Below, piece after piece: positions 9,321-44,127 of a stretch of 64,000 nt of DNA. The notes below the pieces were generated by a model that worked only from the letters and a program-made list of their open reading frames with translations, did not search any database and was not told the DNA's origin. The stretch is taken from positions 128,001-192,000 of IMG/VR virus record IMGVR_UViG_3300046522_000316. The stretch is one strand, 5' to 3'. Numbering within the stretch: position 1 is the stretch's first letter; the number at the start of each line of letters is the position of its first letter. A program made the translations under genes and the position numbers. This DNA is from a virus. Lineage: Duplodnaviria; Caudoviricetes.

Positions 9321-9334
9321 CTGTAAATAATGTA
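9321..9334 (+). promoter_or_regulatory. candidate phage promoter element CTGTAAATAATGTA
   Basis: An exact 14-bp copy occurs at 37051-37064 on the minus strand. Both copies are intergenic and upstream of a gene. The core resembles T4 late TATAAATA. Confidence 0.55.
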
Positions 9335-9446
9335 CAAGGAGTTGAGAAACGTTCGACACTAGCCAGACCAAAGGGTTGGGGATCGGGTAACGACGCTACG
9401 GGCTTAGCTGGCCATTACATGATAGTCGTTGCCCACTTGACCGATA

Positions 9447-12630: not shown

Positions 12631-13078
12631 ATACGGCCCCAGCCCAATTTTTACGGTCGTTGCTTCGGAGATTCCTAACTCGGGCAAACGACCAGACACA
12701 CCGAAACCAGAAATAAACGAAGTGGGCGAATCGGCATGCGTTACCGGGCTTTCCAGTCTGGCACAGCGCCTGACGCAGGATATTCTTGTGGCCCATGAGC
12801 GCGTGCATTACGGATTTCCAATGCCGCAATTTCTTTTGCTCGCCCATGAATCGGAATTCGATCATCCAGACTTGGCGATTGCACAGCAGCTGCACCAATA
12901 TGTGGAATTTCGGGATATCACAATCGGTTATCCGCTGTCGATCAATGCGTATTTGTATATCACTGATCCAGCGGCTTACGGATTGCCACGCGGCTTAACT
13001 GAGGAAGAGGTTCTGAATAGTTTTCTTCGGAATTCTGTGCGGATTACCTACATCGTCAAGAATACGGATTTAAAATAA
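12620..13078 (+). CDS. hypothetical protein
   Basis: ATG 12620 chosen within the 12572-13078 ORF; its stop overlaps the next ATG. Confidence 0.65.
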   Translation: MGCEYGPSPIFTVVASEIPNSGKRPDTPKPEINEVGESACVTGLSSLAQRLTQDILVAHERVHYGFPMPQFLLLAHESEFDHPDLAIAQQLHQYVEFRDITIGYPLSINAYLYITDPAAYGLPRGLTEEEVLNSFLRNSVRITYIVKNTDLK

Positions 13079-14403
13079 TGGCAAACTATCGCTACATGGG
13101 TGAGCGTGACCTCGAATACACGGACGCCAGCGACGAATATGATCTGCATTTTGTGCAAGGTGATTTGTTCACCATGTACCGCCACGGGCAGGTCTACATC
13201 GTTCAGCATTCCGACGCACCTGAAGTTATTTTCAAACTGAAACTGAAGCAGGGCAATGACCTGCACAACATGAGCGAAGAGCTTTTGTCGGTCGAAACCG
13301 ATCCGGACAATCCGCCGTACATGTTGTTCAAACCGTCGTTCGAAATGATGCCGTTGCTTTACGATTATTTCAACCGCACTTATTTCAACAACGAATGCCC
13401 GGTTGTGAAATTCCGCAAGACTACGAAAAGCACTGTGTGGGGAATGGCGCAGCTGGAATGGCTCGGTAAAAAACCGGTTTACACGTTCTTCGTGAATGAA
13501 AGCGCAATGATCGACCGCGTGCTGTTCTCGAATACCGTTCTGCACGAACAGATTCACCTTCGTAACTTCGCGAAGGGTTACAAGTTGATGGACATTGATC
13601 CAAGTTCGTCGAAGGATTATTTGCACGATGACCACGGCCCCCATTTCCAAGACGAAATGCGCCGCCTGAATGCGAAAGGCTTCCACATTCTGCTGGCCGC
13701 AACACACGAAGAATTCAAACGTGATGCAACGGAAGAATTCTACGCAATTGTTGCGCAGGAAACAGCGGGCGCTCGCGTCATGTCATGGAACGCGTGGTAC
13801 ACGGCGAAAGAACTTACCGCCGATGACGCCGAACGTCTGGCCGGGCAGCTGAAGGAAATCAACCCGCATGCGGAATACACGATTAAACTGATCAAGACAA
13901 AAGATCGGAACGTGACGCACGCGACCCACATCAAAGGAACGAAAACGTTTACCGATTCGACTTTGAAAAAGAAAATCCAAGGCGATATCGACCTGCGCAT
14001 GGCCGAGGTTTTGTACACGACCTATTTGCGTCCGTCGATTGCTGTGGAATTGCCTGATTACAAAGACGTGCCGGATCTGTACGCGTTGCCGCTGGATAAC
14101 TTCTACAAATCCATGCGTAGCTACACCGATGACCGAATGGTGTTGCGCGCAAAATGGATGAAGTTTCCGGGCAAGCTTTTGAGTTCCCAAATCGACAAGA
14201 AGTTCAGCACCTTGATTGGTCGCATGGGCCGGGACTCAATCCACGATGACGACGTGGTGAACATCCTGAACGATATCCGCGCAGCGTATGCGGATCGTTT
14301 TTCGTACCAACAATATGTGGACGCCATGCATGCGTTCATCAAGAAATATGATCGCAAAGGCCTGCTTGCAGAGTACGCCAAAATTATGCGACTGATTGCG
14401 TGA
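13078..14403 (+). CDS. SprT-like zinc metalloprotease
   Basis: LYDYFNRTYF...WGMA...TVLHEQIHL (HExxH)...DHGPHFQDEMRRLN is the SprT/Wss1-type signature. Confidence 0.85.
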   Translation: MANYRYMGERDLEYTDASDEYDLHFVQGDLFTMYRHGQVYIVQHSDAPEVIFKLKLKQGNDLHNMSEELLSVETDPDNPPYMLFKPSFEMMPLLYDYFNRTYFNNECPVVKFRKTTKSTVWGMAQLEWLGKKPVYTFFVNESAMIDRVLFSNTVLHEQIHLRNFAKGYKLMDIDPSSSKDYLHDDHGPHFQDEMRRLNAKGFHILLAATHEEFKRDATEEFYAIVAQETAGARVMSWNAWYTAKELTADDAERLAGQLKEINPHAEYTIKLIKTKDRNVTHATHIKGTKTFTDSTLKKKIQGDIDLRMAEVLYTTYLRPSIAVELPDYKDVPDLYALPLDNFYKSMRSYTDDRMVLRAKWMKFPGKLLSSQIDKKFSTLIGRMGRDSIHDDDVVNILNDIRAAYADRFSYQQYVDAMHAFIKKYDRKGLLAEYAKIMRLIA

Positions 14404-15605: not shown

Positions 15606-16031
15606 ATGAAAATGATGCTCGCATTAGCGGCCAGTGGTAAAAAGTATTTGTCGGGCGGGCTGATGATTCGGTTGGCCCGGAACTACCCGGATATTCGCGA
15701 CCTCGGTAATCGCCTGCTGCGTCTGCCCATTATCCCGCGTGGGAATTTCGTTCCCAAATTGCCTAAAGGTGATGACCACCTGATCAAGTTTGCAGAACAG
15801 AATAAGTTCTCGCTTTATTACGGTTATCGCGTGTACAAAAACGCAGAAGGCAAAGACCAAATGGAATCTTTGCTGATGTGCGTGGACGACAAGGGCCGCG
15901 TAGTTGAAACCGAAGAAAGCCGGTTGGATAACACGTCGAGTTATGTAGGAATGCGTATCCCGACTGACGATATCAAAAGCCGTCGCTACGCCAACAAATT
16001 CAACCGGATGGATTACCTAAAGGCCCAATGA
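15606..16031 (+). CDS. hypothetical protein with N-terminal tag (MKMMLALAAS)
   Basis: First member of the tagged gene run. Confidence 0.8.
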   Translation: MKMMLALAASGKKYLSGGLMIRLARNYPDIRDLGNRLLRLPIIPRGNFVPKLPKGDDHLIKFAEQNKFSLYYGYRVYKNAEGKDQMESLLMCVDDKGRVVETEESRLDNTSSYVGMRIPTDDIKSRRYANKFNRMDYLKAQ

Positions 16032-17713
16032 TGGAAATGACAATTGCAGCCTCAGTATCGCCGCCCGGTGCAGCGGATGCGTTCATTAAACTTTTGATCG
16101 CGATTTACAAGGCGCCCGAATTCGACTACGGTACGAATTTTCAAACGAAATTGAAGAAGTGGAACGAACAAGCGCAGCCGTTCCTTGAGCAGTACGCGAT
16201 CAAGCGCACCTTTGCCAAAACTTTGTCGATGTTGGTCAATGGCGAAGACGTATCGAACGAGAAATATTCGATCATCGTGAAGGGCTGTTTCGACTCCCTG
16301 AAAAAGAAAAAGAAATCGTTCGATAAAGACAAAGGTTTGTCCAAGCTGCAATTGAGTTTCCTGAATGACGTGCGTCTGGCCTACAACGGATCGTCGGGTG
16401 CGGGTAATCGCATCATGCAGAACGTTGGCTATTTCAAAGATTCGCATATCAGCAAAATGTTTTTGCACGAAGGCGAACACGTTGACACTTCGGTGCAGCA
16501 ATCGCTTTATGATCGCCTCGAAGAACACGTGAAAACTCACGGCAAAGTGAAGGGCCACGTGATGCCGAATACCACGCTTGAGAAATGGCGTGATAAGGCG
16601 AAAGAAGTGGGCGGCAACCTGACGGAACACCAAGACTATTTGGACATGCGCCGCCAGCGTAAAGCCATCGCAGATAAAGCGATTGCGAATATAGTTCGGG
16701 CATCCGGTGAACACATTGTGGACGTGGACGTAATCCGCGAACAAATGAACGGCGTGCAGCACGATATTCCTGATTGGTTCGTCGGCAAGATCGACGACAA
16801 AGGGAATTACTTCACCACTGACGGTTTGCAACTGCTGAATAAACCGATTGGTGAAGGTTCGATGAACCCGAATTACAAAGCGGGATCGACCGTTTACTAC
16901 TGCCAGTACAAAGCACCATTTGCTGCAAATCTTTCGAACGTCTACACGATTGCAGCCCGTACCGAAGGCCGCGTGCAGTCTTTTAACGTCGTGCAAAACA
17001 TGCTGCCCGATGTGACGAAGTATGTGAAAAAATGGTTGCCTGATTTGGCTAAGGGGCCGGGATCGTTGCGTGGTGTTGCTGCTGCCGTTTGTGAGACGAT
17101 TTACCAGACAAGTGCGCGCATCGGTTCGACCCGTGGCAACACAGCCGGGGAAACGACCTACGGCATTTCTACGCTGCTGCGCAAACACATTCTGTTCAAT
17201 GATCAACGTGCGATTTTCAAGTACATCGGCAAGAAAGGCGGTGCGCAGAAACACGTGATCAAATTCGAAGATCAGCGGACGCAAATGCTGCATGCTGCAC
17301 TTGACGAATTCCTGTACGAGAAAAAGCCAGCGGAATATGTTTTCACTTTCCGTGGCAAACCTCTATCGAACAGCCAAGTGAACGGCTACCTGCGTGACCT
17401 CGGATTTCCTGAAGGTTTCAGCATTCACAAATTCCGTAAGCTGCGCGGTACAGCGATGGCGAAATTGCTGATGGACAAATGCCCGTTTGGTGCCCGCGCC
17501 CGCGATGCTGACGTAAACAAATGGATCGAAACGCAGTGTTTGAAAATCGGTAAGGAACTCGGTCATTTGGCCGGGGAGAAAGTGACGGCCACCACGGCAA
17601 TCGCGAACTATATCGACCCTTCGGTATTCCTGCCGGTCTACGAAAAAACGAACACGCGTCCAAACTCCAAAATCCAAAAAGCGATTGACCTCGCTACGAA
17701 GAGTGCAGAATAA
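16028..17713 (+). CDS. DNA topoisomerase IB with N-terminal tag and long N-terminal extension
   Basis: Catalytic pentad in order: R (SARIG), K (YIGKKG), R (HKFRK), H (LGH), Y (ANYIDP). TYGISTLLRKHI matches poxviral/bacterial Topo IB. Confidence 0.9.
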   Translation: MMEMTIAASVSPPGAADAFIKLLIAIYKAPEFDYGTNFQTKLKKWNEQAQPFLEQYAIKRTFAKTLSMLVNGEDVSNEKYSIIVKGCFDSLKKKKKSFDKDKGLSKLQLSFLNDVRLAYNGSSGAGNRIMQNVGYFKDSHISKMFLHEGEHVDTSVQQSLYDRLEEHVKTHGKVKGHVMPNTTLEKWRDKAKEVGGNLTEHQDYLDMRRQRKAIADKAIANIVRASGEHIVDVDVIREQMNGVQHDIPDWFVGKIDDKGNYFTTDGLQLLNKPIGEGSMNPNYKAGSTVYYCQYKAPFAANLSNVYTIAARTEGRVQSFNVVQNMLPDVTKYVKKWLPDLAKGPGSLRGVAAAVCETIYQTSARIGSTRGNTAGETTYGISTLLRKHILFNDQRAIFKYIGKKGGAQKHVIKFEDQRTQMLHAALDEFLYEKKPAEYVFTFRGKPLSNSQVNGYLRDLGFPEGFSIHKFRKLRGTAMAKLLMDKCPFGARARDADVNKWIETQCLKIGKELGHLAGEKVTATTAIANYIDPSVFLPVYEKTNTRPNSKIQKAIDLATKSAE

Positions 17714-17715
17714 AT

Positions 17716-18000
17716 ATGGAAATGATGCTGGCAGTTGCCAACGAAAATCGCAACCCTGTTTCGGTAGACAAATTGCCGAAAGGTTCCAAGGTCACTCATT
17801 TTGTGCTGTATCACGAAGGCACTTTTAACATCTTGGGGCGTGGTCGTGCCGCTACCGCCAAACAGGCGACAAAACAAATGGATCGCCTTATGTCGCTGGG
17901 GATGAAAGCGGATCTTGCGCTTTACGCAGAAGACGGCGACCGCACGGTTTTGCTGCGCGAAACGTATATCCTGAAACGTACCGGCCCTGAGAAGGTTTAA
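17716..18000 (+). CDS. hypothetical tagged protein (MEMMLAVAN)
   Basis: 94-aa ORF carrying the tag. Confidence 0.8.
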   Translation: MEMMLAVANENRNPVSVDKLPKGSKVTHFVLYHEGTFNILGRGRAATAKQATKQMDRLMSLGMKADLALYAEDGDRTVLLRETYILKRTGPEKV

Positions 18001-18003
18001 CAA

Positions 18004-18375
18004 ATGGAATTGCTGATCGCTGTTGCGTCGAACAAAATCGACAAAGGGAATTTGATTCCCGCCGATACGAAAATCCAAGCGTATTCGATCCACGACAACC
18101 ATTCGGAAAAATATCTGAACGCTGGTTCGCATGCGCCGTGCAGTGCGGCCCAAGCGCTGAAGAAAATCAAAGAATTCACCAAACAATACGGCGGCGTCAC
18201 CGTGCTGTTCGACCTGCTGGAACCTAGCGGGCGTACCATCCGCGCCAAGCGTTCTTATTCGATGAATTATGGCGATTTGATTCAGCCGTATCGCGGTACG
18301 GAAACCATCCTGCAAGATGTTATGGCACCAACGCCGAAACCTACGAATCAGGCAAAGAAAGTTCGTCACATTTAA
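18004..18375 (+). CDS. hypothetical tagged protein (MELLIAVAS)
   Basis: 123-aa ORF carrying the tag. Confidence 0.8.
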   Translation: MELLIAVASNKIDKGNLIPADTKIQAYSIHDNHSEKYLNAGSHAPCSAAQALKKIKEFTKQYGGVTVLFDLLEPSGRTIRAKRSYSMNYGDLIQPYRGTETILQDVMAPTPKPTNQAKKVRHI

Positions 18376-18394
18376 TAAAAAGAGCGTGGGACAA

Positions 18395-18700
18395 ATGGAC
18401 GTATACGAAAGCGGTGTTTGTATTGGTCAGCGCGGCGAACAAGGCCCGGAAGGCCCACGCGGCCCCTGTGGCCCTACTTGCAAGGGGCCTGAGTGCGGCT
18501 GTGGCAGTGTGTGCGGGCCTATTGGTCAGCATGGCTTTCCGGGTGCAGATTGGAACGATGGAAAGGGAGGTGATCGTGGAATTCCCGGCCCCGACTACGG
18601 CGGCGATAACGCTGGCCCATCGAAGAAAGAAGCTCACGCTATGCCGTGGTATGTCGCACACGTAATGCGGCAAACGCGCCGTCAACAACGGGTGAATTAA
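18395..18700 (+). CDS. small Cys-rich collagen-like protein (untagged)
   Basis: [17 protein letters not shown]...CGPIGQHGFPG Gly-X-Y runs. Start ATG 18395. Confidence 0.65.
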   Translation: MDVYESGVCIGQRGEQGPEGPRGPCGPTCKGPECGCGSVCGPIGQHGFPGADWNDGKGGDRGIPGPDYGGDNAGPSKKEAHAMPWYVAHVMRQTRRQQRVN

Positions 18701-19129
18701 ATGGAAGTGAATATCGCATTAGGTGCGAGTCCGAATCAGGTTTATTTGTTCTTCGATAAACTGCGTCTGCGCGGATTCGAATTGAGTGAATCCAAATACG
18801 GGCACCCGAAAGCCATCCGCAAATATTACGACTTGTCCGGGCATTACAAATGTTCGGTAAATGTCGGCACCTACAAATTCGGTGAAGGTGCAGGCTGGTA
18901 CGAATACACAGTGTGGGTTGAATCTGCTGTGAAAGACGCAGTGACCGGCGAGCCTGTGGCAGCGGAAGAACTGAAAAACGGTTATTCGTTTACCACGCAG
19001 GACAACGAACGCATTACGCTTTTCACTTATTTCCTCGACTCGATTCTGACGCAGCCTGAATGCGTTGGCCTACCAACTCCGCTTGCCGTGGATGAAGTCC
19101 GCGAAGGCGAATATCGGATTAAATTTTAA
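18701..19129 (+). CDS. hypothetical tagged protein (MEVNIALGAS)
   Basis: 142-aa ORF carrying the tag. Confidence 0.8.
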   Translation: MEVNIALGASPNQVYLFFDKLRLRGFELSESKYGHPKAIRKYYDLSGHYKCSVNVGTYKFGEGAGWYEYTVWVESAVKDAVTGEPVAAEELKNGYSFTTQDNERITLFTYFLDSILTQPECVGLPTPLAVDEVREGEYRIKF

Positions 19130-19395
19130 TGGAAATTCAAATGGCTTTGGCCGCGAATAAAAAGCTGGTTCCAACCGGCACCACCATGGCAGGTTTCGAG
19201 ATTCAAAAAGACGGTAGCCCCATGATGACCATCGGCGGCAAATCCACTTGGCCGAGGATCGAAACGCAATTGGCACAGCACATTAAACTGGTCGGTGACG
19301 TGCATCTGGTGATCTGGATTCGCGACAAAAACGGCGACATGACCACGACCAAAACCCTTTACGGCCTCGACGGCGATCAAGTGGTGGAAAAATAA
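19129..19395 (+). CDS. hypothetical tagged protein (MEIQMALAAN)
   Basis: 88-aa ORF carrying the tag. Confidence 0.8.
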   Translation: MEIQMALAANKKLVPTGTTMAGFEIQKDGSPMMTIGGKSTWPRIETQLAQHIKLVGDVHLVIWIRDKNGDMTTTKTLYGLDGDQVVEK

Positions 19396-19827
19396 ATGAA
19401 AATGGAAATCGCAACCGCTGCTGAACCGACAATGCTGCCGAGCCGCTACGCCATTGGCGAGCCTGTGTTTTTTCACCCGGCAATTCACGACTTCACGCCG
19501 GAACAAATCCAGAAAAACGCACTGAAAGCCAAAATCATGGGCGTGCGTTTCACCAAAGAAAAAGTGCTGTACGAATTGGCGTTGGATACCGCACTTGATC
19601 CGGGGCCTGCCGAATATTACGAAGCAATTCCACTGGCTGACGTGGATTCGTATTTCGTGCTGAACGCAGCCGATGCAATGGACGGCGACCGTTTGCTGGC
19701 CGACGTTTCCTACATGGCGACTGGCTCCAGCAAAACCCGTACACCACAAGAAATCCGCAAGTTCGCTCAATTCTTTTTGGCGGTTGCGGCTGACCTTCCC
19801 GAACTGCGTAAAGAACAGGGCAAATAA
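19396..19827 (+). CDS. hypothetical tagged protein (MKMEIATAAE)
   Basis: 143-aa ORF carrying a tag variant. Confidence 0.8.
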   Translation: MKMEIATAAEPTMLPSRYAIGEPVFFHPAIHDFTPEQIQKNALKAKIMGVRFTKEKVLYELALDTALDPGPAEYYEAIPLADVDSYFVLNAADAMDGDRLLADVSYMATGSSKTRTPQEIRKFAQFFLAVAADLPELRKEQGK

Positions 19828-19829
19828 AA

Positions 19830-20219
19830 ATGGAAGTGATGATCGCCCTCGGGGCCTCAATTAAAGTCAGTGACCGGGGCGAACATTTCGGTAAAGAATT
19901 TCGTTCCGAACACGGTTACATCTGCGTGAAAACAGGCGGGCAATTCTCGCCATGCAAACACAGCGTAACCGATTACGTGGTTAACGAAGAATCACGCGGA
20001 CAGGGCCACGGTGATTTCCTGCTGAAGGGAATTGTGCGCACGTATAAATCGGATATCGGCGGGCAGGTTAGCAGCATTGCCAGCCTGCACGTGTTCTACA
20101 AAAACGGGTTCCGACCAGCACTCAAACTCGATGCAACTTTGGAAGAGACGAAAAAGCTTTTCAAAGATGAATGGGGTAGCCTGCTGATGGTTTATAAACC
20201 GGCGAAGGATTTCACTTAA
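19830..20219 (+). CDS. GNAT acetyltransferase, tagged (MEVMIALGAS)
   Basis: Motif A YVVNEESRGQGHGDFLL and motif B ASLHVFYKNGF. Confidence 0.8.
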   Translation: MEVMIALGASIKVSDRGEHFGKEFRSEHGYICVKTGGQFSPCKHSVTDYVVNEESRGQGHGDFLLKGIVRTYKSDIGGQVSSIASLHVFYKNGFRPALKLDATLEETKKLFKDEWGSLLMVYKPAKDFT

Positions 20220-21136
20220 TGGAAATGCAATTGGCGTTGGCCGGGAGTTCCGTACTCTATCATTTGATCCCGATGGAATACGCAATTGAAGCAATGCAAA
20301 AAGACCGCTTCCGGCTGATGCCAACCAACGAAGGCGTCGAGTCTGAATTCGGGGATGCTCAATATTTCCTGAGCCTTGCACGTTCGAAACTTTCCGATTA
20401 TTTCATCAAAGAAGCTGGCTCGACGCACGTCATTTTCGTGCTGGACGGCCAGAAGCTGAACGCGAATTACCAAATCAAAGCGGTCGATTATTGGGCGAGC
20501 CAAAAGCACGTTTCCAACGACGAAAAAGAAGACCGCCTGTTCGCAAACAAAATGTACATTCCGTGCATTCGATACATCAAAGAAATCCATTTCATGAAAG
20601 AAAGCGGCAAGTACAAGGAAAACGAATCGTTAACCTTGGCGCTGCTGGCAAAACGCAACAAGATCCAGCTGTTCCAGTACGACGATCAAAAGGCATTTGT
20701 GCGGCTTGATAAACGCAAGACAATCAAGCTGGAAGTTTCCAACATTAAGAAAAAGAAATTCGGTAAGAACGAATGGACGCCCGGCCCGGACTACACGCTA
20801 GAAGCGTGGTATGTCGCATCGCAAATCGTGTTCAAGGGTGACAAGCCGCATTACACGCAATTCATGGCCGGGGCCAAGCACAAAGAAGAACGCAAGGCCC
20901 GCGAACGTGTGGCCCGCGATATTCGAAACCTGATTAAATATCGGGATGTAGAAGCGGGGCCTGTGCGTGACTTCAATCAGTTGGCGGGGTTCCTCAAAGA
21001 TCCGCACGACGCCGAATTTCTGGAAAAGATCAAGCGTGTGAAACGTCGCCTGAAGACCGACACCAAAGGATTTCTTGATTACGTGCGCAAGCGCTGGATG
21101 ACTCAAGAAGAAAAAGAAATGCACGGCTTGGAGTAA
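20219..21136 (+). CDS. probable ADP-ribosyltransferase-fold protein, tagged (MEMQLALAGS)
   Basis: LYH, FLSLARS and EKEDRL appear in the order and spacing of the ART triad (H/R, SxS, ExE). Confidence 0.55.
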   Translation: MEMQLALAGSSVLYHLIPMEYAIEAMQKDRFRLMPTNEGVESEFGDAQYFLSLARSKLSDYFIKEAGSTHVIFVLDGQKLNANYQIKAVDYWASQKHVSNDEKEDRLFANKMYIPCIRYIKEIHFMKESGKYKENESLTLALLAKRNKIQLFQYDDQKAFVRLDKRKTIKLEVSNIKKKKFGKNEWTPGPDYTLEAWYVASQIVFKGDKPHYTQFMAGAKHKEERKARERVARDIRNLIKYRDVEAGPVRDFNQLAGFLKDPHDAEFLEKIKRVKRRLKTDTKGFLDYVRKRWMTQEEKEMHGLE

Positions 21137-21140
21137 ACGC

Positions 21141-22952
21141 ATGGAAATGCAATTGGCTGTGGCCGCAGTACGACTTAGTGTTGCGCGCCCATTCGTAAAG
21201 GGCTGGAATAAAAACGGAATCGGTGTGAAAGCCGTCCGTAAATTCCTGCCTAAAAATAGCAAAGGTTATCGGCTGTATATGCCGATCAAGAAAACGAAGG
21301 CCGACCGCGTAGTGGTGCCACATGCGGTGTTCCACGCAATCCACGAAGCCGGTTACAGCATCGAAGATTACATCAACGGAATCGCGGTGGCTCCGGACGG
21401 TAAACGTCGCGTGCGTATCGGCAAGATTTTGCGCGATGCAGAAGCCATTAAAGAATTCGCAAACGATCCGCAACGTTCGGCCCACAAAGACGAATACACC
21501 TGCGTGATTTCTGCGCATCCTTACGATGTGATCGGAATGTCTACCGGGCGCCGTTGGGATAAGACGACCTGCATGCGCTTAGCAACGCCTGAGAACAAAG
21601 GTGACGCAGGCGAGAAGGCCGTAGAATTCATGCCGGGCACCGTTGCGGAAGGCACGTTGGTTGCCTACGTGATCAGCCCCAAAGATAAAAACATCAACAA
21701 GCCTCACGCTCGCCTGTTGATCAAACCGTACAAGAAAGCCGACGATCAATCTTTCGTTTATTTCAAAGTCGAAACCGCTGTTTACGGCCAGCCTATTCCC
21801 GGTTTTAAACGCACTGTTGAAAACTGGTTGAAGCGTGTGAACAAAGGCGCGCAGGCCGGTATCTACAAGCTGCACAACAGCGTGCATATCGACGGCTCTG
21901 ATGATAAGCGCACGGCGATCATCGCGGATTACGAAACGATCAAAGATAAAGACAATTTCATTCTGAAAAATATGTACCCGGCTGGCGGGCCGAAAGTCTG
22001 GCTGACCGCCGACAAACGTTGGTTGCCCGACATGCTGCGCATCACCACCGACATTCACAATCTGGAAGAAATTCTGAATGCTGCGCGTGGCCTCAACATG
22101 GGCGCGAAAAAGATCGGTGCGATTTACGATCAGGTTATTCCTGCTGACGATCTGCGCAATTACGATCTGGCCGAATTCCTGATGGGCACGCATGCACAGG
22201 AATTGTTCGAAACCAGTAAACACCTTGGTGATGCTGCGCACGAACAATTCGCGTGGAACGAAGACGAAGAACCTACCAACGCCGGTCATGCAATGAAATA
22301 CGGCCTGTACGATTCGCGCTGGCTGGCGAACGTTGACGATATCAGCACCGACCTTTTGCGGCAGGCTGCGCAGAAGTTTATTTATGGCGCTTACCACTGG
22401 ACGAAAGAACTGCAAGATTCTCGGACGCCGGGCGCTGAAAAGATTCGTCTGTATTTCGCATTTGTTTCGCACGGACTTCTGGCCGACACTGGCTGGCTCA
22501 CTCCGCGTGTGAAAATCCAGAACCTGAAAGACTTCGTGAAGAAATCGAAAATTCCTGCCGGTTGGGATGAAAAGATTGTGGACATTGTGCGGTCGTTTGA
22601 CTGGCACCCGAATTTCCGCAACTCGACCTCGAATAATCTTCAGGGTGAAGCCTGCGTGCTGAATGCGGCGCCGGACTGGGCAGCTGTGTTCCCTGAATGG
22701 ATTCCCGAAGCGCGTAAATACCTGAGCGAAAAAGCGGTTGGTGTTCTGGCTAAAATGGCGAAGCACAACAAAGCAATTCGCGAACAGTTGGTCTACTGGG
22801 CCTACGCGCAAAACCGCGATGCACTTTCCAACGGATACCACTGGTTCACCACACGTAAAAACGTGCGTGATTTTATTCACCGCGTAGCTGAATCCAAAGG
22901 CGATGGCGAAGCCGAAGTATTCGCCCAACGCATTCTGTCCCTACAGAGTTAA
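21141..22952 (+). CDS. tagged paralogue 1 of the HPYD-GMST family (603 aa)
   Basis: Shares a ~250-aa N-terminal domain with the next two genes (VISAHPYDVIGMSTGRRWD..CMR, EGTLVAY, YGQPIPG). Confidence 0.85.
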   Translation: MEMQLAVAAVRLSVARPFVKGWNKNGIGVKAVRKFLPKNSKGYRLYMPIKKTKADRVVVPHAVFHAIHEAGYSIEDYINGIAVAPDGKRRVRIGKILRDAEAIKEFANDPQRSAHKDEYTCVISAHPYDVIGMSTGRRWDKTTCMRLATPENKGDAGEKAVEFMPGTVAEGTLVAYVISPKDKNINKPHARLLIKPYKKADDQSFVYFKVETAVYGQPIPGFKRTVENWLKRVNKGAQAGIYKLHNSVHIDGSDDKRTAIIADYETIKDKDNFILKNMYPAGGPKVWLTADKRWLPDMLRITTDIHNLEEILNAARGLNMGAKKIGAIYDQVIPADDLRNYDLAEFLMGTHAQELFETSKHLGDAAHEQFAWNEDEEPTNAGHAMKYGLYDSRWLANVDDISTDLLRQAAQKFIYGAYHWTKELQDSRTPGAEKIRLYFAFVSHGLLADTGWLTPRVKIQNLKDFVKKSKIPAGWDEKIVDIVRSFDWHPNFRNSTSNNLQGEACVLNAAPDWAAVFPEWIPEARKYLSEKAVGVLAKMAKHNKAIREQLVYWAYAQNRDALSNGYHWFTTRKNVRDFIHRVAESKGDGEAEVFAQRILSLQS

Positions 22953-22956
22953 ACAA

Positions 22957-25716
22957 ATGAAATTAGAAATGGCATTGGCCGCCGTGTCCATGAAAACGGC
23001 ACTGAAATATCGCCGCAATTGGGATCGCAATGCACCGATTGTGAAGCTGTTGCAATCCATGATGCCGTTCGGGCCGGGCAAGAAAGGGTATCGCCTGTAT
23101 TTCGATATCGGTGTGAACCATAAAGCGCACTTCACGGTTCCCCCGGCTGTGCGTTCGGCCCTGCAAAAAGCAGGCTATGCACCAACCGATTATCTGGCGA
23201 AGAAATGCGTCAAGATCGGTGACAAAGAACAGAAGAACGTTTTCAATATCGGCAAAGTAATTGCGAAAGATCCACACGCAAAAGCGGCGTTCGATAACGA
23301 TCCACAATTGCAGAACACCAAACAGGGTGCGTTGCAGGTCGTGATCAGCTGTCACCCGTATGACGTAATCGGTATGAGTACCGGGCGTGCGTGGGACAAA
23401 ATGTCGTGCATGCGCCTTGCTGATGGCGAACACCGTCTCGATCCCGGTTCGAACTCGCATTACGTGCGCAACGACGTTTCGGAAGGCACCTTGGTTGCCT
23501 ACGTTGTCGGCGCCGATGATTCGAATATTCAGCAACCGAAAGCACGCTGCTTGCTGAAGCCTTTCTACAACGAAAAAGGCGAAGTGCTTTATCGTCGTGA
23601 AACCCGCATTTACGGCAACCCGGTTCCCGGTTTCGATATTATTCTTTCGCGTTTTCTGCGTAAGATTAATGCGCACCTTCCGGAAGGCACGTTCCAAATG
23701 GCTAAGGGCCTTTACAACGACGGCATGGGCGATTACACGTACCACAAACCGAGCCATGACGATAACCTGTCGATTGAAGACGTGACGCTTGATCCTGCGC
23801 ACGCCGTGCAATACGTGCAGCAGCAAGTGAAAGCCATGGAAGATCATGCTTTCCGTGATGATCATATCGACAATATCATCACCTTCCTGAACAACGATGA
23901 AATTCAAAGTCGTTTGAAAGAAACGCAAATTGATGAAATCGTCGAAACCCTCAAAGGCGTGAAGGCCGCAGTTAACGGCATTCATTTGCTGGCCTACAAA
24001 GACCAGCCTTTGAGTACGGTGCTGGCCGAAGTCGGTCGCCGCATTGGTTCGTTCGAGAAAACGAAAGGCTTCACGAAAGAAATTCTGGCTGGTCTGGATG
24101 ACGACCGTGTTCACAACCTTTCGCACGGTGGGGGCAATCCCGTAATCGAAGCGCTTAGCCGCGTGGAAGATTTGAACGATTATGAACTGCGTGATAATTC
24201 CCGCATTTTCAAAATGATCCTCACTGGCAAAACTCCAGTGCCTTCGAAAGAAGAATTGGAAAACTTGCCGAATTGCGCACGCATTTTGAATACCGCTGCG
24301 CACGCTGCCCGCCACATGACGATGCTCAATGATGATTCGATGCAGAAAGGTGCATACGCAATTATCGACCTTGGAATTGATGTGGAAAACGCAATCTGGC
24401 TCGGCCCGGATGCAGCTGACATGATGTACGCAACTGGCGGCATTAATCTTTTCCTCGGTTATGTGATGGATAACGTCGGCAAACTGAGTTCGGATGCGTT
24501 GTGGGCCGCTGACCCTGCCGTAACCGCATTGGCGCTCGCGAATCGCCGGGTGTTCCGCTTCCTTGATAAACAGGAAGATCGCCAAATTGCATTCATGATG
24601 GATCATGTGAAAATGGAACAGGTTAAATATCTGATCCTGAATCCGAGTAAAGAACAACTTTTCAAAGACAACAAAGCGGCGCTCATTAAATACCTCGACG
24701 ATAACGAGGAAGTTATTCCGTCGATCCTCGGCAATGGTTGGGAACCGCAGTACGTGAAAAACTTGGCGAATCTCCATTTGCCAGCCGTAATGCATTTGAC
24801 CGAAAGCGATGGCATTTTCACTTCGGGACTAGCCGATACGATGCAGGGGATTATCCCGGCACTTATGGCATGGGACGGCCCGAAACTGGAACCGCTGACC
24901 ACCGATATCGAAAACGCATTGCAGATTATTGTGCAGGCCGGGAACCTTCTGGATAAACCGTTGCATTTGGAACGGAAAATCGACGAAGAACAATTCGAAA
25001 TTCGCGATATCACGGATGTTTCCGACAACTACGTGCAACGCGCTGGCGCCAATCGCTACACCCGCATTAAATCGTTCCCTGAATTGCTGTATAAACTGGA
25101 TTTCAACGGCGAACGTGCGGACATTACCCATTCGACCGAACTCATGGAACATTTGGGCGGCGATGCATTCGGTTGGGTTCCTACCGAGAAGCTTCCGGGC
25201 GAAGTTCGCGGCATGCTGAAACTGGTTCGTGAAATGGATTTAGATCCTGCAATTGATGCGCTCTACAGCCTGATCAACGCCACGCGTTTGCTTCCATTGG
25301 AAGAGGTGGATGCGGGCGTTGAACGACGCATGAATGATCGTGAAATTTTCATGCCCGACGATGACGTATTGGACGAAGACGCTTACGAAGAGGCGGATGC
25401 CGCCTACAATGAAATTCGTCAATCAATTGAAGATGAAATCATTGAGAACAATTACAAAACCCTTCGCCTCAATCGCAAGCTGTTGGAAGCGTTGGAAAAA
25501 GTGAAAGACTTCGTGGGCTACGACGAAGACGTTGATTATTTCGATGACGATGCACCACTCGCCACATTCGCCACCGATTTGACGAACGTTTCCGAAGACG
25601 ATTACGCTGACAATGAAGACCGCGTGCGTGATTTGCGGGCTGAGTTGAAAAGCGAATGCGAAAGCCGTCCGAACGAACAGCAGGAAATGGAAGACGACGC
25701 TGGTTTCAGCGAATAA
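22957..25716 (+). CDS. tagged paralogue 2 of the HPYD-GMST family (919 aa, acidic tail)
   Basis: Start ATG 22957 (MKLEMALAAV). VISCHPYDVIGMSTGRAWDKMSCMR, EGTLVAY, YGNPVPG. Confidence 0.85.
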   Translation: MKLEMALAAVSMKTALKYRRNWDRNAPIVKLLQSMMPFGPGKKGYRLYFDIGVNHKAHFTVPPAVRSALQKAGYAPTDYLAKKCVKIGDKEQKNVFNIGKVIAKDPHAKAAFDNDPQLQNTKQGALQVVISCHPYDVIGMSTGRAWDKMSCMRLADGEHRLDPGSNSHYVRNDVSEGTLVAYVVGADDSNIQQPKARCLLKPFYNEKGEVLYRRETRIYGNPVPGFDIILSRFLRKINAHLPEGTFQMAKGLYNDGMGDYTYHKPSHDDNLSIEDVTLDPAHAVQYVQQQVKAMEDHAFRDDHIDNIITFLNNDEIQSRLKETQIDEIVETLKGVKAAVNGIHLLAYKDQPLSTVLAEVGRRIGSFEKTKGFTKEILAGLDDDRVHNLSHGGGNPVIEALSRVEDLNDYELRDNSRIFKMILTGKTPVPSKEELENLPNCARILNTAAHAARHMTMLNDDSMQKGAYAIIDLGIDVENAIWLGPDAADMMYATGGINLFLGYVMDNVGKLSSDALWAADPAVTALALANRRVFRFLDKQEDRQIAFMMDHVKMEQVKYLILNPSKEQLFKDNKAALIKYLDDNEEVIPSILGNGWEPQYVKNLANLHLPAVMHLTESDGIFTSGLADTMQGIIPALMAWDGPKLEPLTTDIENALQIIVQAGNLLDKPLHLERKIDEEQFEIRDITDVSDNYVQRAGANRYTRIKSFPELLYKLDFNGERADITHSTELMEHLGGDAFGWVPTEKLPGEVRGMLKLVREMDLDPAIDALYSLINATRLLPLEEVDAGVERRMNDREIFMPDDDVLDEDAYEEADAAYNEIRQSIEDEIIENNYKTLRLNRKLLEALEKVKDFVGYDEDVDYFDDDAPLATFATDLTNVSEDDYADNEDRVRDLRAELKSECESRPNEQQEMEDDAGFSE

Positions 25717-25741
25717 AAACAGTAATTTTATAGTATGTTAC

Positions 25742-25777
25742 GCCGGGAAGGTTTAGGCTGACCCGGCTTTCTTTTTT
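25742..25777 (+). terminator. possible terminator between paralogues 2 and 3
   Basis: GCCGGG-N14-CCCGGC followed by TTTCTTTTTT. Confidence 0.55.
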
Positions 25778-25791
25778 ATGGATCAAAAAAC

Positions 25792-28455
25792 ATGCTAATT
25801 GACTTGGCTTTCCTCGGTACAGCAGCGGTTTCAATGCGTAGTGCTTTGAAATACCGCCGCAATTGGGATAAGAACGGGCCGACCGTTCAACTGCTTCGCA
25901 AATTCATGCCGCGTGGTTCCAAAGGGTTTCGCGTTTATGTTCCCATTGGTCACGCACAAGTTACGAACAACGTGGTCATTCCGTTGCCAGTTCGTTTGGC
26001 CGTTCGCAAAGCCGGTTTCCGCATCACTGATTACCGGGCGAAACGCTGCGTTAAGCTGAACGATAAAGATCAGAAAAACGTATTCAATATCGGTAAGGTT
26101 ATTTCGAAAGATTCCGTGGCTAAGGCCGCATTCGACAATGACCCGCAATTGCAGAACAGTTCTACCTCCGAATTCACAATGGTTATTTCCTGTCACCCAT
26201 ACGACATTATCGGTATGTCCACTGGCCGTGATTGGGATGAAACCAGCTGCATGCGCATGGGCGATTATCGCGACGATTACAGCGATGGTTCCAACGTCAG
26301 TTATTTGAAACACGACGTGGCCGAAGGAACGTTGGTTGTTTACGCCGTGCGCTCTGATGATCCAAATATCACGAAACCGTTGGGTCGTTGCCTGTTGAAA
26401 CCTTTCCTGCGTGATGACGGATCGGGTTCTATTTTCTACCGTCGTGAAACCGATGTTTATGGCAACCCGGTTCCCGGTCTGGCTGAAACGTTGGCGCGCT
26501 TCCTGCGCAAATTGAATGCCGGTGTTCCTGCCGGGATTTATAAGCTCAACGAAAAGCTTTACAACGACGGCCTTGTACCGCGTGCAGAGAACGATGGTTC
26601 TTCCGAAGGGCCAACCGTTGACTGGGCAGTGGTTGACGATCAGCAGAAGCTGAAAGAACGCCCGGAAATGTTTGCAGATTTTGCGAACTATTTGATGAAA
26701 CGAAACGCGGAAGGAATCACCGACACCAGTGTGGTGATCAACATCCTGATCGACCATGCAAAAACGATCAACGCACGTTTCGTTAAACCAGCGGCCCGCG
26801 TACTTGCCAATCCGAAATTCGCTGCTGCATTCCTTGAACATGCTGCGTCTTCTTTCTCGGATTCCGATTCGGATAGCATCGCTAAATTCATGGCATCGCC
26901 TGAGTTCCGCCGTGCGCTGTTGCTGGCTGAACGCGAAGCAGAAGAGGCGCCGGATACCTACCGTTCGCTTTCGTTCCTGAGTCCGAAAAACGCACATCGT
27001 TATTTCGTGCGTGAAGTAAAAGACAATCCGGACAATTACAACTATGCGGCAATCAGCTACGCGTGCGGCACCGTTGACCTGTTGCCGGACGATGTTGAAT
27101 CCATTCCAGAACTGCACAAACTCGTATTTAAATATGCGGAATTGATTCGCGAAAGTTCTGTGTTTGGTTCGACTGCCTATCAGGAATCGGCACACCGCGT
27201 GCTGTCTACGGTTGAGCCGTACAAAGGCGATTACACGGAAGCGGAAATTCAGGATATCGCGGTAACGTTGGCCGGTGACAAAAAGACTTATCGCGCAATC
27301 ATCGCGTGGTTTATCAATTCCACCAGCGCAAACGACATTGTGACCTCTGATCTGCTGGCCGGTTTCATTCGCGAAGCCCGTTTCCGTTGGGCGCTGCGTG
27401 ATCGTCGGATGCGTAAACGAATTCTCGGCCTGAAAAACATTTCTGCAACAGCGCAAGAAATGGTTGTGCGGTCTATCGACGAACTGATGGACAACCACGA
27501 CGCACAGGATGCAGCCAGCATTCAACGTGACCTGATTGCCCATATGCGCCGTGGTGGTTTCGACTGCCTGACTGCGAAGATGTATATGCGCATTTTGGGT
27601 AACGCACCGCAGCTGTTTAAATCCATCTGGTATTCGCAGGAAAACGAACTCAATGCCAATCTGGTCGAAGAGCTTCTGACCCGGCCTTCGATGTTGAGCA
27701 ACTGCGTTCGTGAGAATCCAGATGCTGTGCCGCAAAACGAATTCCAGAAGAATATTTTCCGTGTGGCGAAAACGTTCGTGGTTGTAATCGGGGAACCAAC
27801 CGAGGAAGACAAAAAGATCGGCGTTGTCGATCCGGACGTAATGAAAATTCTGGTTAAATTCGGTGGTGGAATGCGTGCCCTTGGGCATTACATTATCAAC
27901 CTCGCGGATTACCCGGACTTGCTGAACGGTTCGACCTACGTTGGCGCCGGTATTTTCCCGCTGGATTTGATCGGTGAAGACAACGGCCACAAGTTCCTTG
28001 AATCGCTGCGAGAAAAAGATATCGACGCAACGCAAACCCTGTTGAAAGCTGTAGCGCACGATTTCGCGCAAATGGGTTTGTACGCGGGCGCAGCTACCCG
28101 GCAGAATCGCGTTCTCAGTAATGCCGGTGCCCCTAGCGGTATTGCAACGATGGCGAAATCCCCGCCAGAATTCGCGGTCGCGGCCCAAGGGCGTTACGTT
28201 GCGGCAATTCAGAAGGTGAACAGTTTTATCGAAAACTTCCCGGTAAACGGGACTATCGAAGACTGGGAAAAACTTCTGCCTCTGATGGATATGGAACATC
28301 TGCCAGCCTTCAACGAAATGGTGGACGGCATGCTGGATAATCAGCGGCAAGTTCAACAGACCGCGCAGATGTTTGCGATGTTTGCCCAAGGCGAAACGAA
28401 AGAGGCATTGAAGGCCGCGCTTCCGCCTGACTGGCTCACGATAAAGGATTTGTAA
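25792..28455 (+). CDS. tagged paralogue 3 of the HPYD-GMST family (887 aa)
   Basis: MLIDLAFLGTAAVSMRSALKYRRNW; VISCHPYDIIGMSTGRDWDETSCMR, EGTLVVY, YGNPVPG. Confidence 0.85.
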   Translation: MLIDLAFLGTAAVSMRSALKYRRNWDKNGPTVQLLRKFMPRGSKGFRVYVPIGHAQVTNNVVIPLPVRLAVRKAGFRITDYRAKRCVKLNDKDQKNVFNIGKVISKDSVAKAAFDNDPQLQNSSTSEFTMVISCHPYDIIGMSTGRDWDETSCMRMGDYRDDYSDGSNVSYLKHDVAEGTLVVYAVRSDDPNITKPLGRCLLKPFLRDDGSGSIFYRRETDVYGNPVPGLAETLARFLRKLNAGVPAGIYKLNEKLYNDGLVPRAENDGSSEGPTVDWAVVDDQQKLKERPEMFADFANYLMKRNAEGITDTSVVINILIDHAKTINARFVKPAARVLANPKFAAAFLEHAASSFSDSDSDSIAKFMASPEFRRALLLAEREAEEAPDTYRSLSFLSPKNAHRYFVREVKDNPDNYNYAAISYACGTVDLLPDDVESIPELHKLVFKYAELIRESSVFGSTAYQESAHRVLSTVEPYKGDYTEAEIQDIAVTLAGDKKTYRAIIAWFINSTSANDIVTSDLLAGFIREARFRWALRDRRMRKRILGLKNISATAQEMVVRSIDELMDNHDAQDAASIQRDLIAHMRRGGFDCLTAKMYMRILGNAPQLFKSIWYSQENELNANLVEELLTRPSMLSNCVRENPDAVPQNEFQKNIFRVAKTFVVVIGEPTEEDKKIGVVDPDVMKILVKFGGGMRALGHYIINLADYPDLLNGSTYVGAGIFPLDLIGEDNGHKFLESLREKDIDATQTLLKAVAHDFAQMGLYAGAATRQNRVLSNAGAPSGIATMAKSPPEFAVAAQGRYVAAIQKVNSFIENFPVNGTIEDWEKLLPLMDMEHLPAFNEMVDGMLDNQRQVQQTAQMFAMFAQGETKEALKAALPPDWLTIKDL

Positions 28456-28881
28456 ATGGAACTTTTTATTGCACTAGCTGCCGAGGATGTGAGCGCACGG
28501 ATTTCTGACGGTGTGCGTTCCATTCTGAAAAAGTCGTACAGTTCGTTGTTTGCCAATGTGTTCGTGCGGGTTTTCGATATTGATGATCGGCACAAATCTG
28601 ATATCAAAATCGTTCGTGAAATGGCGAAAGAATTTGCACCGGTTTGGGTTACTGTCGAGAACGCACAGCACGATATCGTGACGTTTGTTTTCGCGGTGCC
28701 TACGCTGGCGCCTGTGCTGCACATTCCGAATCCGCCGCTGGCCTACGTGATCCACAACGAAAAAGTCGAGCAATTCAAACTCGAACCACGCGTTGTACAG
28801 GTTCGCGGTGCTGACTACGCAATCGCTGCTGCTGTCGCACGCCGGGCACCGAACTTTATCGAAATTGGAGTGAGCAAATAA
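28456..28881 (+). CDS. hypothetical tagged protein (MELFIALAAE)
   Basis: 141-aa ORF carrying the tag. Confidence 0.8.
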   Translation: MELFIALAAEDVSARISDGVRSILKKSYSSLFANVFVRVFDIDDRHKSDIKIVREMAKEFAPVWVTVENAQHDIVTFVFAVPTLAPVLHIPNPPLAYVIHNEKVEQFKLEPRVVQVRGADYAIAAAVARRAPNFIEIGVSK

Positions 28882-29105
28882 TGGAAATGATCCTCTCGCT
28901 TGCGCGGGCTGGATCGGCGGAACGGTGGGATGCAATTCCAGAAGTACGGTTCGACCGTGCGAAGGAAGGGCACTCACTGAATGCGTCCGGCAAACTCACA
29001 AAAAAGCGCCGCAGAAAACGCCTGAAAAGCGGACTGATCGACACGCCTCTAAAGGGCGCAGAGAAACGGCAAATGGATATTCAGGACACGGTTAGATGCC
29101 CGTGA
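28881..29105 (+). CDS. small basic tagged protein (MEMILSLARA)
   Basis: 74-aa ORF with a tag variant and a KKRRRKRLK stretch. Confidence 0.7.
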   Translation: MEMILSLARAGSAERWDAIPEVRFDRAKEGHSLNASGKLTKKRRRKRLKSGLIDTPLKGAEKRQMDIQDTVRCP

Positions 29106-29112
29106 GGTAGAT

Positions 29113-29376
29113 ATGCCAAAGCTAACAATTAAAGGTCGTGCCAAACAATCGGATGGCGTGCAAAAACCTGAACACGATGGCGCTCGCATTTTACGTTGGG
29201 AAGACGACGACAAAATGATGCACGATGTACCGAAGGCTAAAAAAGCTTCGTTGCTGAAAGATCGCACGCGTTCCGGGCAGCAAGGCGCCATGGCTTTCCC
29301 GCACGATTACATCGACAAAATGCACGTGTCCAAATCGAACTGGTTGGGCCGTCGTGAACGGGGACGCCAACGATGA
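29113..29376 (+). CDS. hypothetical basic protein
   Basis: 87-aa ORF preceded by GAGG. Confidence 0.7.
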   Translation: MPKLTIKGRAKQSDGVQKPEHDGARILRWEDDDKMMHDVPKAKKASLLKDRTRSGQQGAMAFPHDYIDKMHVSKSNWLGRRERGRQR

Positions 29377-29999
29377 CCGAGATTACGATTGACGGGTGGG
29401 CCTGCGACAACGAAGACAAAGAACCAGTCGAATCGACCGGGCGTCTTCGTGATATTTTCGGTGATCCTTTTAAAGATTTCCGCGAAATGCAGGACGCGAA
29501 GAAAAAGAATCAGTGGCAAGAAATCGAAATTGATTTGAATCCAGAAGTGAACCCGCTGTCGCCCGAAGGTTTCGACCAGACGTTTCAGCAGGTTGCGCAG
29601 GCCACGAAACCGCGACCGAAAGGGATTGGTGAAGACTGGTTCCGTTCGTTGCTGCGCAAAGGCCTTCAGAACGCGCAGGCCAACAAAGAACGCAACGCAC
29701 TGGCAACCGCTAGCGATCCAACTGGAAAGCAGCAGCACGGCGACCACAAGGCCGATGGCAAGTTGGCACGCACGGCGAAAGTGGCACAAGACCACAAGAT
29801 GAAAAAGCAGCAAGCTTTGCGGGATCTGCAAAAGCGTTTGGCAACCGTCAACAGCAAACGCCCGAAAGATCCAACGAAGGTAAAAGCGTGGTCGGATCGT
29901 CGCCAAGCGCTGGTGAAAAAGATTGCAGAAAAACGTGAGTCGATGCGTTTCTCTGACAAGCGTGTGGCTGGTCTACGGGAGGAACGCCGTGGAAATTGA
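29373..29999 (+). CDS. hypothetical protein with basic helical C-terminus
   Basis: 208-aa ORF, ATGA overlap with the upstream gene. Confidence 0.7.
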   Translation: MTEITIDGWACDNEDKEPVESTGRLRDIFGDPFKDFREMQDAKKKNQWQEIEIDLNPEVNPLSPEGFDQTFQQVAQATKPRPKGIGEDWFRSLLRKGLQNAQANKERNALATASDPTGKQQHGDHKADGKLARTAKVAQDHKMKKQQALRDLQKRLATVNSKRPKDPTKVKAWSDRRQALVKKIAEKRESMRFSDKRVAGLREERRGN

Positions 30000-36998: not shown

Positions 36999-37050
36999 AA
37001 CAACTCCTTTAAAAAGGCATTAATTGCCTGTTGTGCGTAATTTACTTATA

Positions 37051-37064
37051 TACATTATTTACAG
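37051..37064 (-). promoter_or_regulatory. candidate phage promoter element CTGTAAATAATGTA (second copy)
   Basis: Identical to 9321-9334. Lies in the AT-rich divergent gap and points at thyA. Confidence 0.55.
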
Positions 37065-43884: not shown

Positions 43885-44127
43885 ATGACTGAATTCATCA
43901 ATCCGCTGACCGTATTGCGTCAGCAGAAAGAAGCCAAAGAACAACAAATCGCCGTCGCTTCTGCCGCAGAAATGGAAGCGCAGGAATTGGCTACGGCCAG
44001 CGCGTTGACGAACGTTGATCCGTCGATGTGCCCTAAATGCGGTCGTAGCATGGGGTTCGGTTTTTTGTTTGATCGTACCCGTGTTTACTACTGTGATGTT
44101 GATCGCGTTTCGCAGCCGATGGAATGA
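43885..44127 (+). CDS. small protein with CPKC...C Zn-ribbon-like C-terminus
   Basis: MCPKCGRSMG...YYCDVD. The N-terminal half contains IAVASA and LATASA. Confidence 0.7.
   Translation: MTEFINPLTVLRQQKEAKEQQIAVASAAEMEAQELATASALTNVDPSMCPKCGRSMGFGFLFDRTRVYYCDVDRVSQPME

Follow-up and report, generated by a model that had tools for sequence, protein, structure and literature searches.

What would lead fourteen adjoining genes of a tailed phage, whose products belong to no common family, to begin with variants of one short peptide? This question is raised by a locus in a DNA stretch of 64,000 nucleotides from a virus of the Caudoviricetes (Duplodnaviria), positions 128,001 to 192,000 of the IMG/VR record IMGVR_UViG_3300046522_000316, which is referred to in this study as the window and in which the genes concerned lie on the plus strand at 15606-29105. 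We consider it probable that the shared N-terminus, hereafter the tag, is a cleavable capsid-targeting propeptide, similar in kind to the capsid targeting sequence (CTS) of phage T4 and written in a different code. The region is about 78% identical in patches to the Pseudomonas jumbo phage Lu11 (280.5 kb) and to phage HRDY3, and the window is, judged from its sequence, part of a Lu11-related giant Pseudomonas phage. Complete metagenomic relatives of about 300 kb exist, G002 being one of them, and the closest record, G001, is a fragment of 56 kb that has no head genes; the data on capsid, scaffold and protease used below were taken from the relatives Lu11, HRDY3, G002, PaBG, JA29 and Alexandra.

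The genes of the array are given below, with lengths in amino acids (aa) and an arrow marking the proposed end of the tag.

15606..16031 (+): tagged protein of 141 aa, MKMMLALA↓AS; orthologue of Lu11_0196 and PaBG gp86; no Pfam, PHROG or NCBIfam family
16031..17713 (+): tagged, predicted type IB topoisomerase of 560 aa, MEMTIAAS...; the alternative start at 16028 adds one Met
17716..18000 (+): tagged protein of 94 aa, MEMMLAVA↓NE; orthologue of Lu11_0198
18004..18375 (+): tagged protein of 123 aa, MELLIAVA↓SN; no Lu11 or G002 homologue; variable cargo
18392..18700 (+): untagged collagen-like (G-x-y) gene; homologue of Lu11_0199, the start being taken from the Lu11 orthologue
18701..19129 (+): tagged protein of 142 aa, MEVNIALG↓AS; no Lu11 or G002 homologue
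19129..19395 (+): tagged protein of 88 aa, MEIQMALA↓AN
19396..19827 (+): tagged protein of 143 aa, MKMEIATA↓AE; the Lu11 orthologue, Lu11_0203, is untagged
19830..20219 (+): tagged small protein of 129 aa, weakly GNAT-like, MEVMIALG↓AS; present in G002, absent from Lu11
20219..21136 (+): tagged protein of 305 aa, MEMQLALA↓GS; predicted N-terminal ADP-ribosyltransferase-fold domain and C-terminal helical domain
21141..22952 (+): tagged large protein of 603 aa, MEMQLAVA↓AV; first of three paralogues, with a conserved N-domain of about 250 aa and a variable C-terminus
22957..25716 (+): tagged large paralogue of 919 aa, MKLEMALA↓AV; acidic C-terminus; the longest open reading frame (ORF) begins at 22903, and database homologues use the tag-consistent start at 22957
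25792..28455 (+): large paralogue of 887 aa with a longer tag, MLIDLAFLGTA↓AVS; the same long type occurs in P0057, P0070, P0081 and P0092
28456..28881 (+): tagged protein of 141 aa, MELFIALA↓AE; orthologue of Lu11_0210
28881..29105 (+): tagged basic protein of 74 aa, MEMILSLA↓RA; orthologue of Lu11_0211

All fourteen N-termini listed in the preliminary description of this locus were found in place. Its consensus fits 13 of them, which read M-(E/K)-h-x-h-A-(L/V/T)-(A/G), with h for a hydrophobic and x for any residue, over eight residues followed by A, S, G or N; it does not fit the start at 25792, MLIDLAFLGTAAVS, which falls outside the eight-residue pattern and represents a longer tag type that spans 11-17 residues in its variants and is also found in Lu11_0209, PaBG gp83, Erwinia phage Alexandra and Dickeya phage JA29. 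The topoisomerase start given earlier, 16028 (MMEM...), is possible, but only 16031 (MEM...) brings the tag into register. A position matrix made from the 13 tagged starts was applied to each Met of the window's six frames; these starts took the 13 top scores (16.9-26.2), and the next score, 7.9 against at least 16.9, lay within an ORF. The shared start is real and exceeds chance by a wide margin. The motif was thereby found in no flanking gene, as had been described, and the scan did not show it to be equally frequent at N-termini elsewhere in the window. A matrix scan of related phages had been proposed as a check, and it was carried out on the whole Lu11 genome, where the matrix ranked the syntenic block Lu11_0196-0211 first, with matches outside the block at Lu11_0068 (which adjoins the head genes), Lu11_0077 and Lu11_0213; G002 behaved in the same manner. 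The Lu11 block carries the same tag in a more uniform form, MKIQLAVA followed by A, G or S, and tagged genes whose bodies have no common family number 14 in the window and 10-13 each in Lu11 and G002.

The codons of the tags indicate at which level the conservation acts. Those of the conserved Ala and Leu residues are free to vary, with GCA, GCT, GCC and GCG all used at position 6 and five codons used for Leu, and where two tags have the same residue the codon is identical in 43% of cases among all tag pairs, against 37% expected from codon usage; because of this, selection is on the peptide and not on the RNA. The same figures bear on the earlier suggestion that the tag spreads as a cassette. 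The identity of the tags at 20219 and 21141 at 22 of 24 nt was verified, but it is not clearly above what peptide likeness and codon usage would give, and since the same-codon fraction is close to expectation it provides no evidence for a DNA cassette. Most tagged genes begin 0-4 nt past the preceding stop codon, so that the array is packed end to end. Within the 4153 aa of the tagged bodies the motif occurs internally 3 times where 1.7 are expected, which is the level of chance, and no depletion of internal sites was seen in them. Additionally, two otherwise confident AlphaFold2 (AF2) models show the tag as disordered, with a predicted local distance difference test score (pLDDT) below 50, at residues 1-8 of the 305-aa protein (model pLDDT 83) and residues 1-6 of the N-domain of the 603-aa protein (model pLDDT 86); in these models the tag is outside the fold, as expected of an extension.

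The evidence that connects the tag with the head comes from the relatives. In the Lu11 head module, the major head protein belongs to phrog_2522 and the head maturation protease to phrog_18299; the module also encodes a virion structural protein and a 634-aa acidic protein, annotated as 'ATPase', which looks like a scaffold and whose name is probably wrong. The major head proteins of Lu11 and HRDY3 display Q-(V/I)-A-T-A-S-S at residues 66-73, and maturation takes about 20% off the mass of the PaBG capsid protein (PMC7412058), which corresponds to about 73 out of 364-368 residues. Copies of A-x-A-[SAGT] in the scaffold-like protein number 20 in Lu11, 25 in HRDY3 and 17 in PaBG, compared with 4-6 in composition-preserving shuffles, none of 1000 of which reached the observed counts. 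The protease itself carries the motif of its lineage in the first 25 residues, as Q-I-A-I-A-S-A in HRDY3, E-I-A-T-A-A in G002 and S-V-E-S in JA29, which suggests self-processing. These proteases are encoded at the following positions.

HRDY3 (L008) 2257-3147: head maturation protease
G002 245881-246768: head maturation protease
JA29 (L009) 2185-3003: head maturation protease

Since the same motif stands at the capsid site, in the scaffold-like protein and near the N-terminus of the protease, the core of the tag appears to be the motif expected of the prohead protease of this group. As a separate observation, the protease family has a conserved C-S-I-C-G ... C-x-H-T cluster that resembles a zinc site.

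The motif also changes with lineage, and the tag changes with it. Two members of the group that holds the Lu11 relatives, Dickeya phage JA29 and Erwinia phage Alexandra (PMC7412058), have the same head module, and in their scaffolds S-x-S, not A-x-A, is in excess (21 and 17 copies against about 4, with 0 of 1000 shuffles reaching the observed counts). Their capsid proteins have V-S-E-S and H-S-T-S at the aligned place, and their clustered genes begin M-x-h-x-h-S-h-S. In a six-frame count of all ATG codons with 60 or more open codons behind them, Ala-type and Ser-type tags numbered 11 and 0 in the window, 13 and 2 in Lu11, 11 and 0 in G002, and 0 and 10 in JA29. The long tag follows the same rule, for it reads M-x-L-I-K-I-x-L ... 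V-x-S-x-S-A in Alexandra and MLIKINLLEAVAAKA in PaBG gp83, both ending in the lineage-specific core. Among 109 database homologues of the large paralogues, the peptides preceding the conserved body start A-[LV]-x-x-S-x-x-R-P-x-V-K-x-W are of the Ala type, the Ser type or Gly variants, or end in h-x-E. This last class includes ORF132 of Ralstonia phage RsoM2USA, gp394 of Agrobacterium phage Atu_ph07 and metagenomic homologues, and Peptidase_S77 (PF03420) is present in RsoM2USA and Atu_ph07 (E 2.5e-30 and 2.4e-22, respectively), while it was not found in Lu11, JA29 or Alexandra. From these comparisons it is clear, at the level of sequence, that tag and head-protein motif change together from Ala-x-Ala to Ser-x-Ser and that the tag swaps with the protease class.

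Aligning the class h-x-E↓A-L-K-P-S with M-E-M-Q-L-A-V-A-A-V-R-L-S would place the cut after the second Ala, residue 8, and we infer a site with Ala at P1, Ala at P3, a hydrophobic residue at P4 and A, S or G at P1'. The preliminary description had put the cut after A-x-A-(A/S), and the alignment moves it one residue earlier. Extending this reading, jumbo phages of several lineages may use interchangeable short N-terminal codes that co-evolve with the prohead protease (h-x-E, h-A-x-A and h-S-x-S), a generalization that we put forward only tentatively.

Proteins of this kind have been detected in the virions of related phages. Atu_ph07 gp394, a homologue of the large paralogues, was found in the virion through 18 unique peptides that cover 41% of it (PMC6102473 Table S5), its identity being established through its mass of 55.10 kDa together with the masses of three neighbouring gene products. 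RsoM2USA ORF132 is among ten Coomassie-visible virion bands (PMC8504454), and PaBG gp83, with the long tag, is virion band 9, the mass of 35,127.30 in the table being the exact monoisotopic mass of that ORF. No link to tags could be made for the PaBG virion proteins gp191, gp261 and gp263. Near the portal of Atu_ph07 (L061, 158000-172000), the virion proteins gp199, gp200, gp205, gp206 and gp213 begin with peptides ending in h-x-E, in the manner of a T4 targeting sequence; gp200 is annotated as topoisomerase IV subunit A, a virion topoisomerase that parallels the tagged topoisomerase IB of the window. The idea of a head label like that of T4 but different from it, already present in the preliminary description, is supported by four independent lines of comparison: the tag core is the capsid-maturation and scaffold motif, tag and head motifs vary together, a T4-type tag goes with a gp21-type protease, and three tagged proteins or homologues are in virions.

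Under the proposed mechanism, the cluster would be expressed with the late genes, and the tag would carry each protein into the scaffold core of the assembling prohead, where the head maturation protease (of the phrog_18299 family, not the gp21 family of T4) would cut behind the second Ala. The same protease would trim the major capsid protein at about residue 70-72 and cleave the acidic scaffold-like protein many times over. The cargo, proposed to stay intact because it would have only one N-terminal site, would remain in the head beside the DNA and would probably be ejected into the next host. We infer that the tag itself does the targeting, beyond processing alone, and that the window's own proteins are packaged.

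Several known systems resemble parts of this scheme. Defence-countering Dar proteins of phage P1 enter the capsid during morphogenesis and are delivered with the DNA, and their loading relies on a hierarchy of specific proteins and is not known to use one common short tag. Herpesvirus assemblin sites, (V/L/I)-x-A↓S, and the A-x-A of signal peptidase I have a small residue at P1 and P3, as does the site proposed here; a signal peptide differs from the present tag, which is without n- and h-regions. The capsid targeting sequence of the T4 internal proteins is reportedly the subject of work by Mullaney and Black in 1996. The T4 protease gp21 cuts after L/I-x-E, and the 10-residue CTS is sufficient for packaging (PMC9026906). 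As in T4, where the CTS is found on IPI-III and as the propeptide of Alt (PMC9026906), a short N-terminal peptide (7-19 residues in T4) would be attached to unrelated, dispensable and hypervariable head-internal proteins and would end in a prohead protease motif that is also found in the capsid protein and in a multiply cut scaffold. The cargo likewise includes an ADP-ribosyltransferase (by fold only here), and in jumbo phages that encode gp21 the homologues of the large proteins have tags of the T4 type at the corresponding position. The differences are that the code here is h-A-x-A followed by A, S or G, with h-S-x-S in the sister phages, in place of L/I-x-E; that no Peptidase_S77 was found in Lu11, JA29 or Alexandra, whose protease belongs to a family with no Pfam model; and that fourteen tagged genes stand in one array, together with a second, longer tag type.

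Among the giant phages phiKZ, 201phi2-1 and SPN3US, gp175/gp245 removes the propeptides of head and ejection proteins by a cut after (S/A/G)-x-E; most of these propeptides are long, at 111-254 residues, and they share no common short tag (PMC10052503). There is a further likeness in that many proteins are packaged in such a head and that the motif of SPN3US gp245 has Ala at P3, favours Val at P4 and has Ser at P1' (V-A-x-E↓S), a parallel to V-A-T-A↓S here except at P1, which is Glu there and Ala or Ser here; about 80% of the SPN3US head proteins are uncleaved (PMC10052503). Our literature searches turned up no account of this tag, nor of cleavage specificity within the Lu11 group. A system of the T4-CTS kind is already known; what is new here is the code, a protease family differing from gp21 and the co-evolution of tag and protease.

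The serious rival explanation is that the tag is a processing site only and that entry into the head depends on other parts of each protein, which we regard as rather unlikely. It would suit the putative cleavage motif in the core of the tag, the lack of any sequence feature pointing to scaffold binding and the SPN3US head proteins, which are mostly packaged without a cleaved propeptide (PMC10052503); yet the bodies behind the tags are unrelated, so that no common alternative targeting element is visible, and the tags hold a fixed eight residues from Met1, with a charged position 2 and a hydrophobic position 3, which internal scaffold sites do not. Moreover, the equivalent 10-residue peptide of T4 is sufficient for targeting (PMC9026906), and a prohead protease works inside the prohead, so its substrate would already be there. 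Very unlikely, in our judgement, is a role as an export or lipoprotein signal, or as a cytoplasmic degron or chaperone tag unrelated to the capsid. The tag has eight residues, mostly Glu at position 2 (acidic or mixed) and no hydrophobic core of 10-15 residues, so that the n-region and h-region that define a Sec or Tat signal are absent, and the cargo consists of nucleic-acid enzymes. In its favour, A-x-A plus a small residue resembles the signal peptidase I rule, and Lu11_0213 has the lipobox-like L-A-V-A-C; the Cys occurs in one relative's protein only, and export would leave unexplained both the enrichment of the motif in head proteins and the swap of the tag with the protease class.

Slightly less credible still is an element at the mRNA level, such as a translation-initiation enhancer or a coupling signal for packed genes without Shine-Dalgarno (SD) sites. 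The close spacing of the starts after the prior stops, with SD-like sequence weak or absent, and a second codon that is usually GAA or AAA are what such an element might show. However, the conserved Ala and Leu codons vary freely, untagged genes of the window are equally SD-poor, the same peptide motif lies inside capsid and scaffold proteins, and a switch from Ala to Ser together with the head proteins is not expected of an RNA signal. The reading of the tag as a capsid-targeting propeptide has points weighing against it as well. Its head-protein evidence comes from relatives (Lu11, HRDY3, G002 and PaBG), and its virion evidence concerns proteins of other phages, none of them from the Lu11/HRDY3 subgroup; some virion lists, that of Atu_ph07 among them, are long and may be contaminated in part, and the mass listed for gp83 is uninformative on cleavage because it is the theoretical full-length mass. 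The exact cut site rests on alignment, and the core A-x-A-[SA] is of low information, occurring about 0.6 times per 1000 aa genome-wide. The phrog_18299 protease family has no Pfam match and no sequence match in the PDB, and, when compared by hhalign with the gp21-type proteases that RsoM2USA and Atu_ph07 encode, it showed no similarity (probability 0.2); the order N-x-N-G-(D/R) ... E-H ... S-x-G, judged by eye, may recall that of gp21/HK97-type serine proteases.

The cargo was examined for functions, and for 11 of the 14 proteins no family was returned by Pfam, PHROGs or NCBIfam. The product of 16031-17713 matches Topoisom_I (PF01028; E 5.3e-12, 46 bits against a cut-off of 23.7) and phrog_23460 (E 8e-259) and is, on these matches, a type IB topoisomerase, whose PaBG orthologue adjoins the head module. 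The 305-aa protein has no sequence-family match in Pfam or NCBIfam; its AF2 model gave DarT as the best Foldseek match (7omw, E 7e-4, probability 1.0, template modelling (TM) score 0.45 by target), and nearly all of the top 30 were of the ADP-ribosyltransferase (ART) fold, including Tpt1/KptA, Arr and the A chains of cholera and pertussis toxins. On these matches the protein is predicted to have a DarT/Tpt1-like ART fold; Y14-H15, S52, R55 and E102-x-E104 are invariant in 26 homologues. The product of 19830-20219 is weakly GNAT-like: Acetyltransf_1 scored 16.9 bits where the cut-off is 20.7 (E 0.008), and Acetyltransf_7, at E about 0.008, likewise fell short of its cut-off. The N-domain of about 250 aa common to the three large proteins gave weak GNAT-like matches at best (Foldseek E at least 0.09; VIA Z 5.8), and AlphaFold DB clusters returned uncharacterised proteins only.

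The content of the block varies between relatives, with four window genes lacking a Lu11 homologue and three paralogues of the 305-aa gene in Lu11. Tags are also gained and lost among orthologues. The tagged product of 19396 is 47% identical over residues 16-138 to the untagged Lu11_0203, which has a stop codon three codons upstream of its start and no tag between, and the SprT-like gene is tagged in PaBG (gp89, MELAIAS) and untagged in the window at 13078. The product of this window gene, at 13078-14403 (+), is a SprT-like metallopeptidase whose N-terminal part is a KMPT-N domain (PF20294, E 9e-10), and the tagged Lu11_0077 has the same domain directly behind its tag. The gene at 29373-29999 (+) starts MTEITIDGWAC, and its Lu11 orthologue Lu11_0213 starts MKIMLAVAC (tag plus Cys, lipobox-like); the window start looks like a decayed or replaced tag. 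The untagged gene at 18392, which is Cys-rich, lies mid-array and is conserved as Lu11_0199, matched Pfam Collagen below cut-off (E 0.0024).

A promoter motif was derived from 19 sites that the Lu11 record annotates as 'putative middle/late promoter', and its match ahead of the cluster is the following feature.

9321..9336 (+): match to the putative middle/late promoter motif (CTGTAAAT-N7-A), the only plus-strand copy upstream of the cluster

The window has two matches to this motif against 0.39 expected, and Lu11 has one at the syntenic place, 147952. The copy at 9321-9336 precedes a long plus-strand block and the second, at 37049-37064 (-), is near a minus-strand block ending at 36998; both copies read CTGTAAATAATGTA. 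A scan of the cluster for terminators and sigma-70 promoters was uninformative, promoter-like sites being fewer than in shuffles.

Two further observations concern the head-protein motif and the scaffold-like gene. An 80-aa protein of the baseplate/tail module, encoded at 43885-44127 (+) and in Lu11 at 182131-182355, has the motif twice (Q-I-A-V-A-S-A and L-A-T-A-S-A), both copies being kept in Lu11 and G002, whereas shuffles give 0.04-0.06; it may be another substrate of the protease or a small scaffold-like factor. The scaffold-like gene of HRDY3 (L008, 4230-6205) is annotated as two adjoining 'ATPase' coding sequences, and it is one gene of 634-662 aa in Lu11, PaBG, JA29 and Alexandra, so that in HRDY3 the gene is either truly divided or only appears interrupted, within the acidic repeat, through sequencing or annotation.

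If the tag is a capsid-targeting propeptide, the head-packaged and probably injected proteins of this clade could be listed from their sequences. The clade, which comprises Lu11, HRDY3, PaBG, the Dickeya and Erwinia phages and many metagenomic genomes of about 300 kb, is widespread and almost unannotated. The finding suggests prohead proteases whose cut follows Ala or Ser instead of Glu, and one cargo domain with three tags, according to the resident protease, provides direct comparative evidence for modular tags that co-evolve with the protease. An 8-residue tag could also serve to load enzymes or reporters into phage heads beyond T4. An ADP-ribosyltransferase-fold protein and a topoisomerase IB in the cargo suggest new activities at DNA entry. 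The packaged set, if the reading is true, would include a DarT/Tpt1-like ADP-ribosyltransferase, a topoisomerase IB and three multidomain proteins of 600-900 aa, and these would act before gene expression against the defences of the host.

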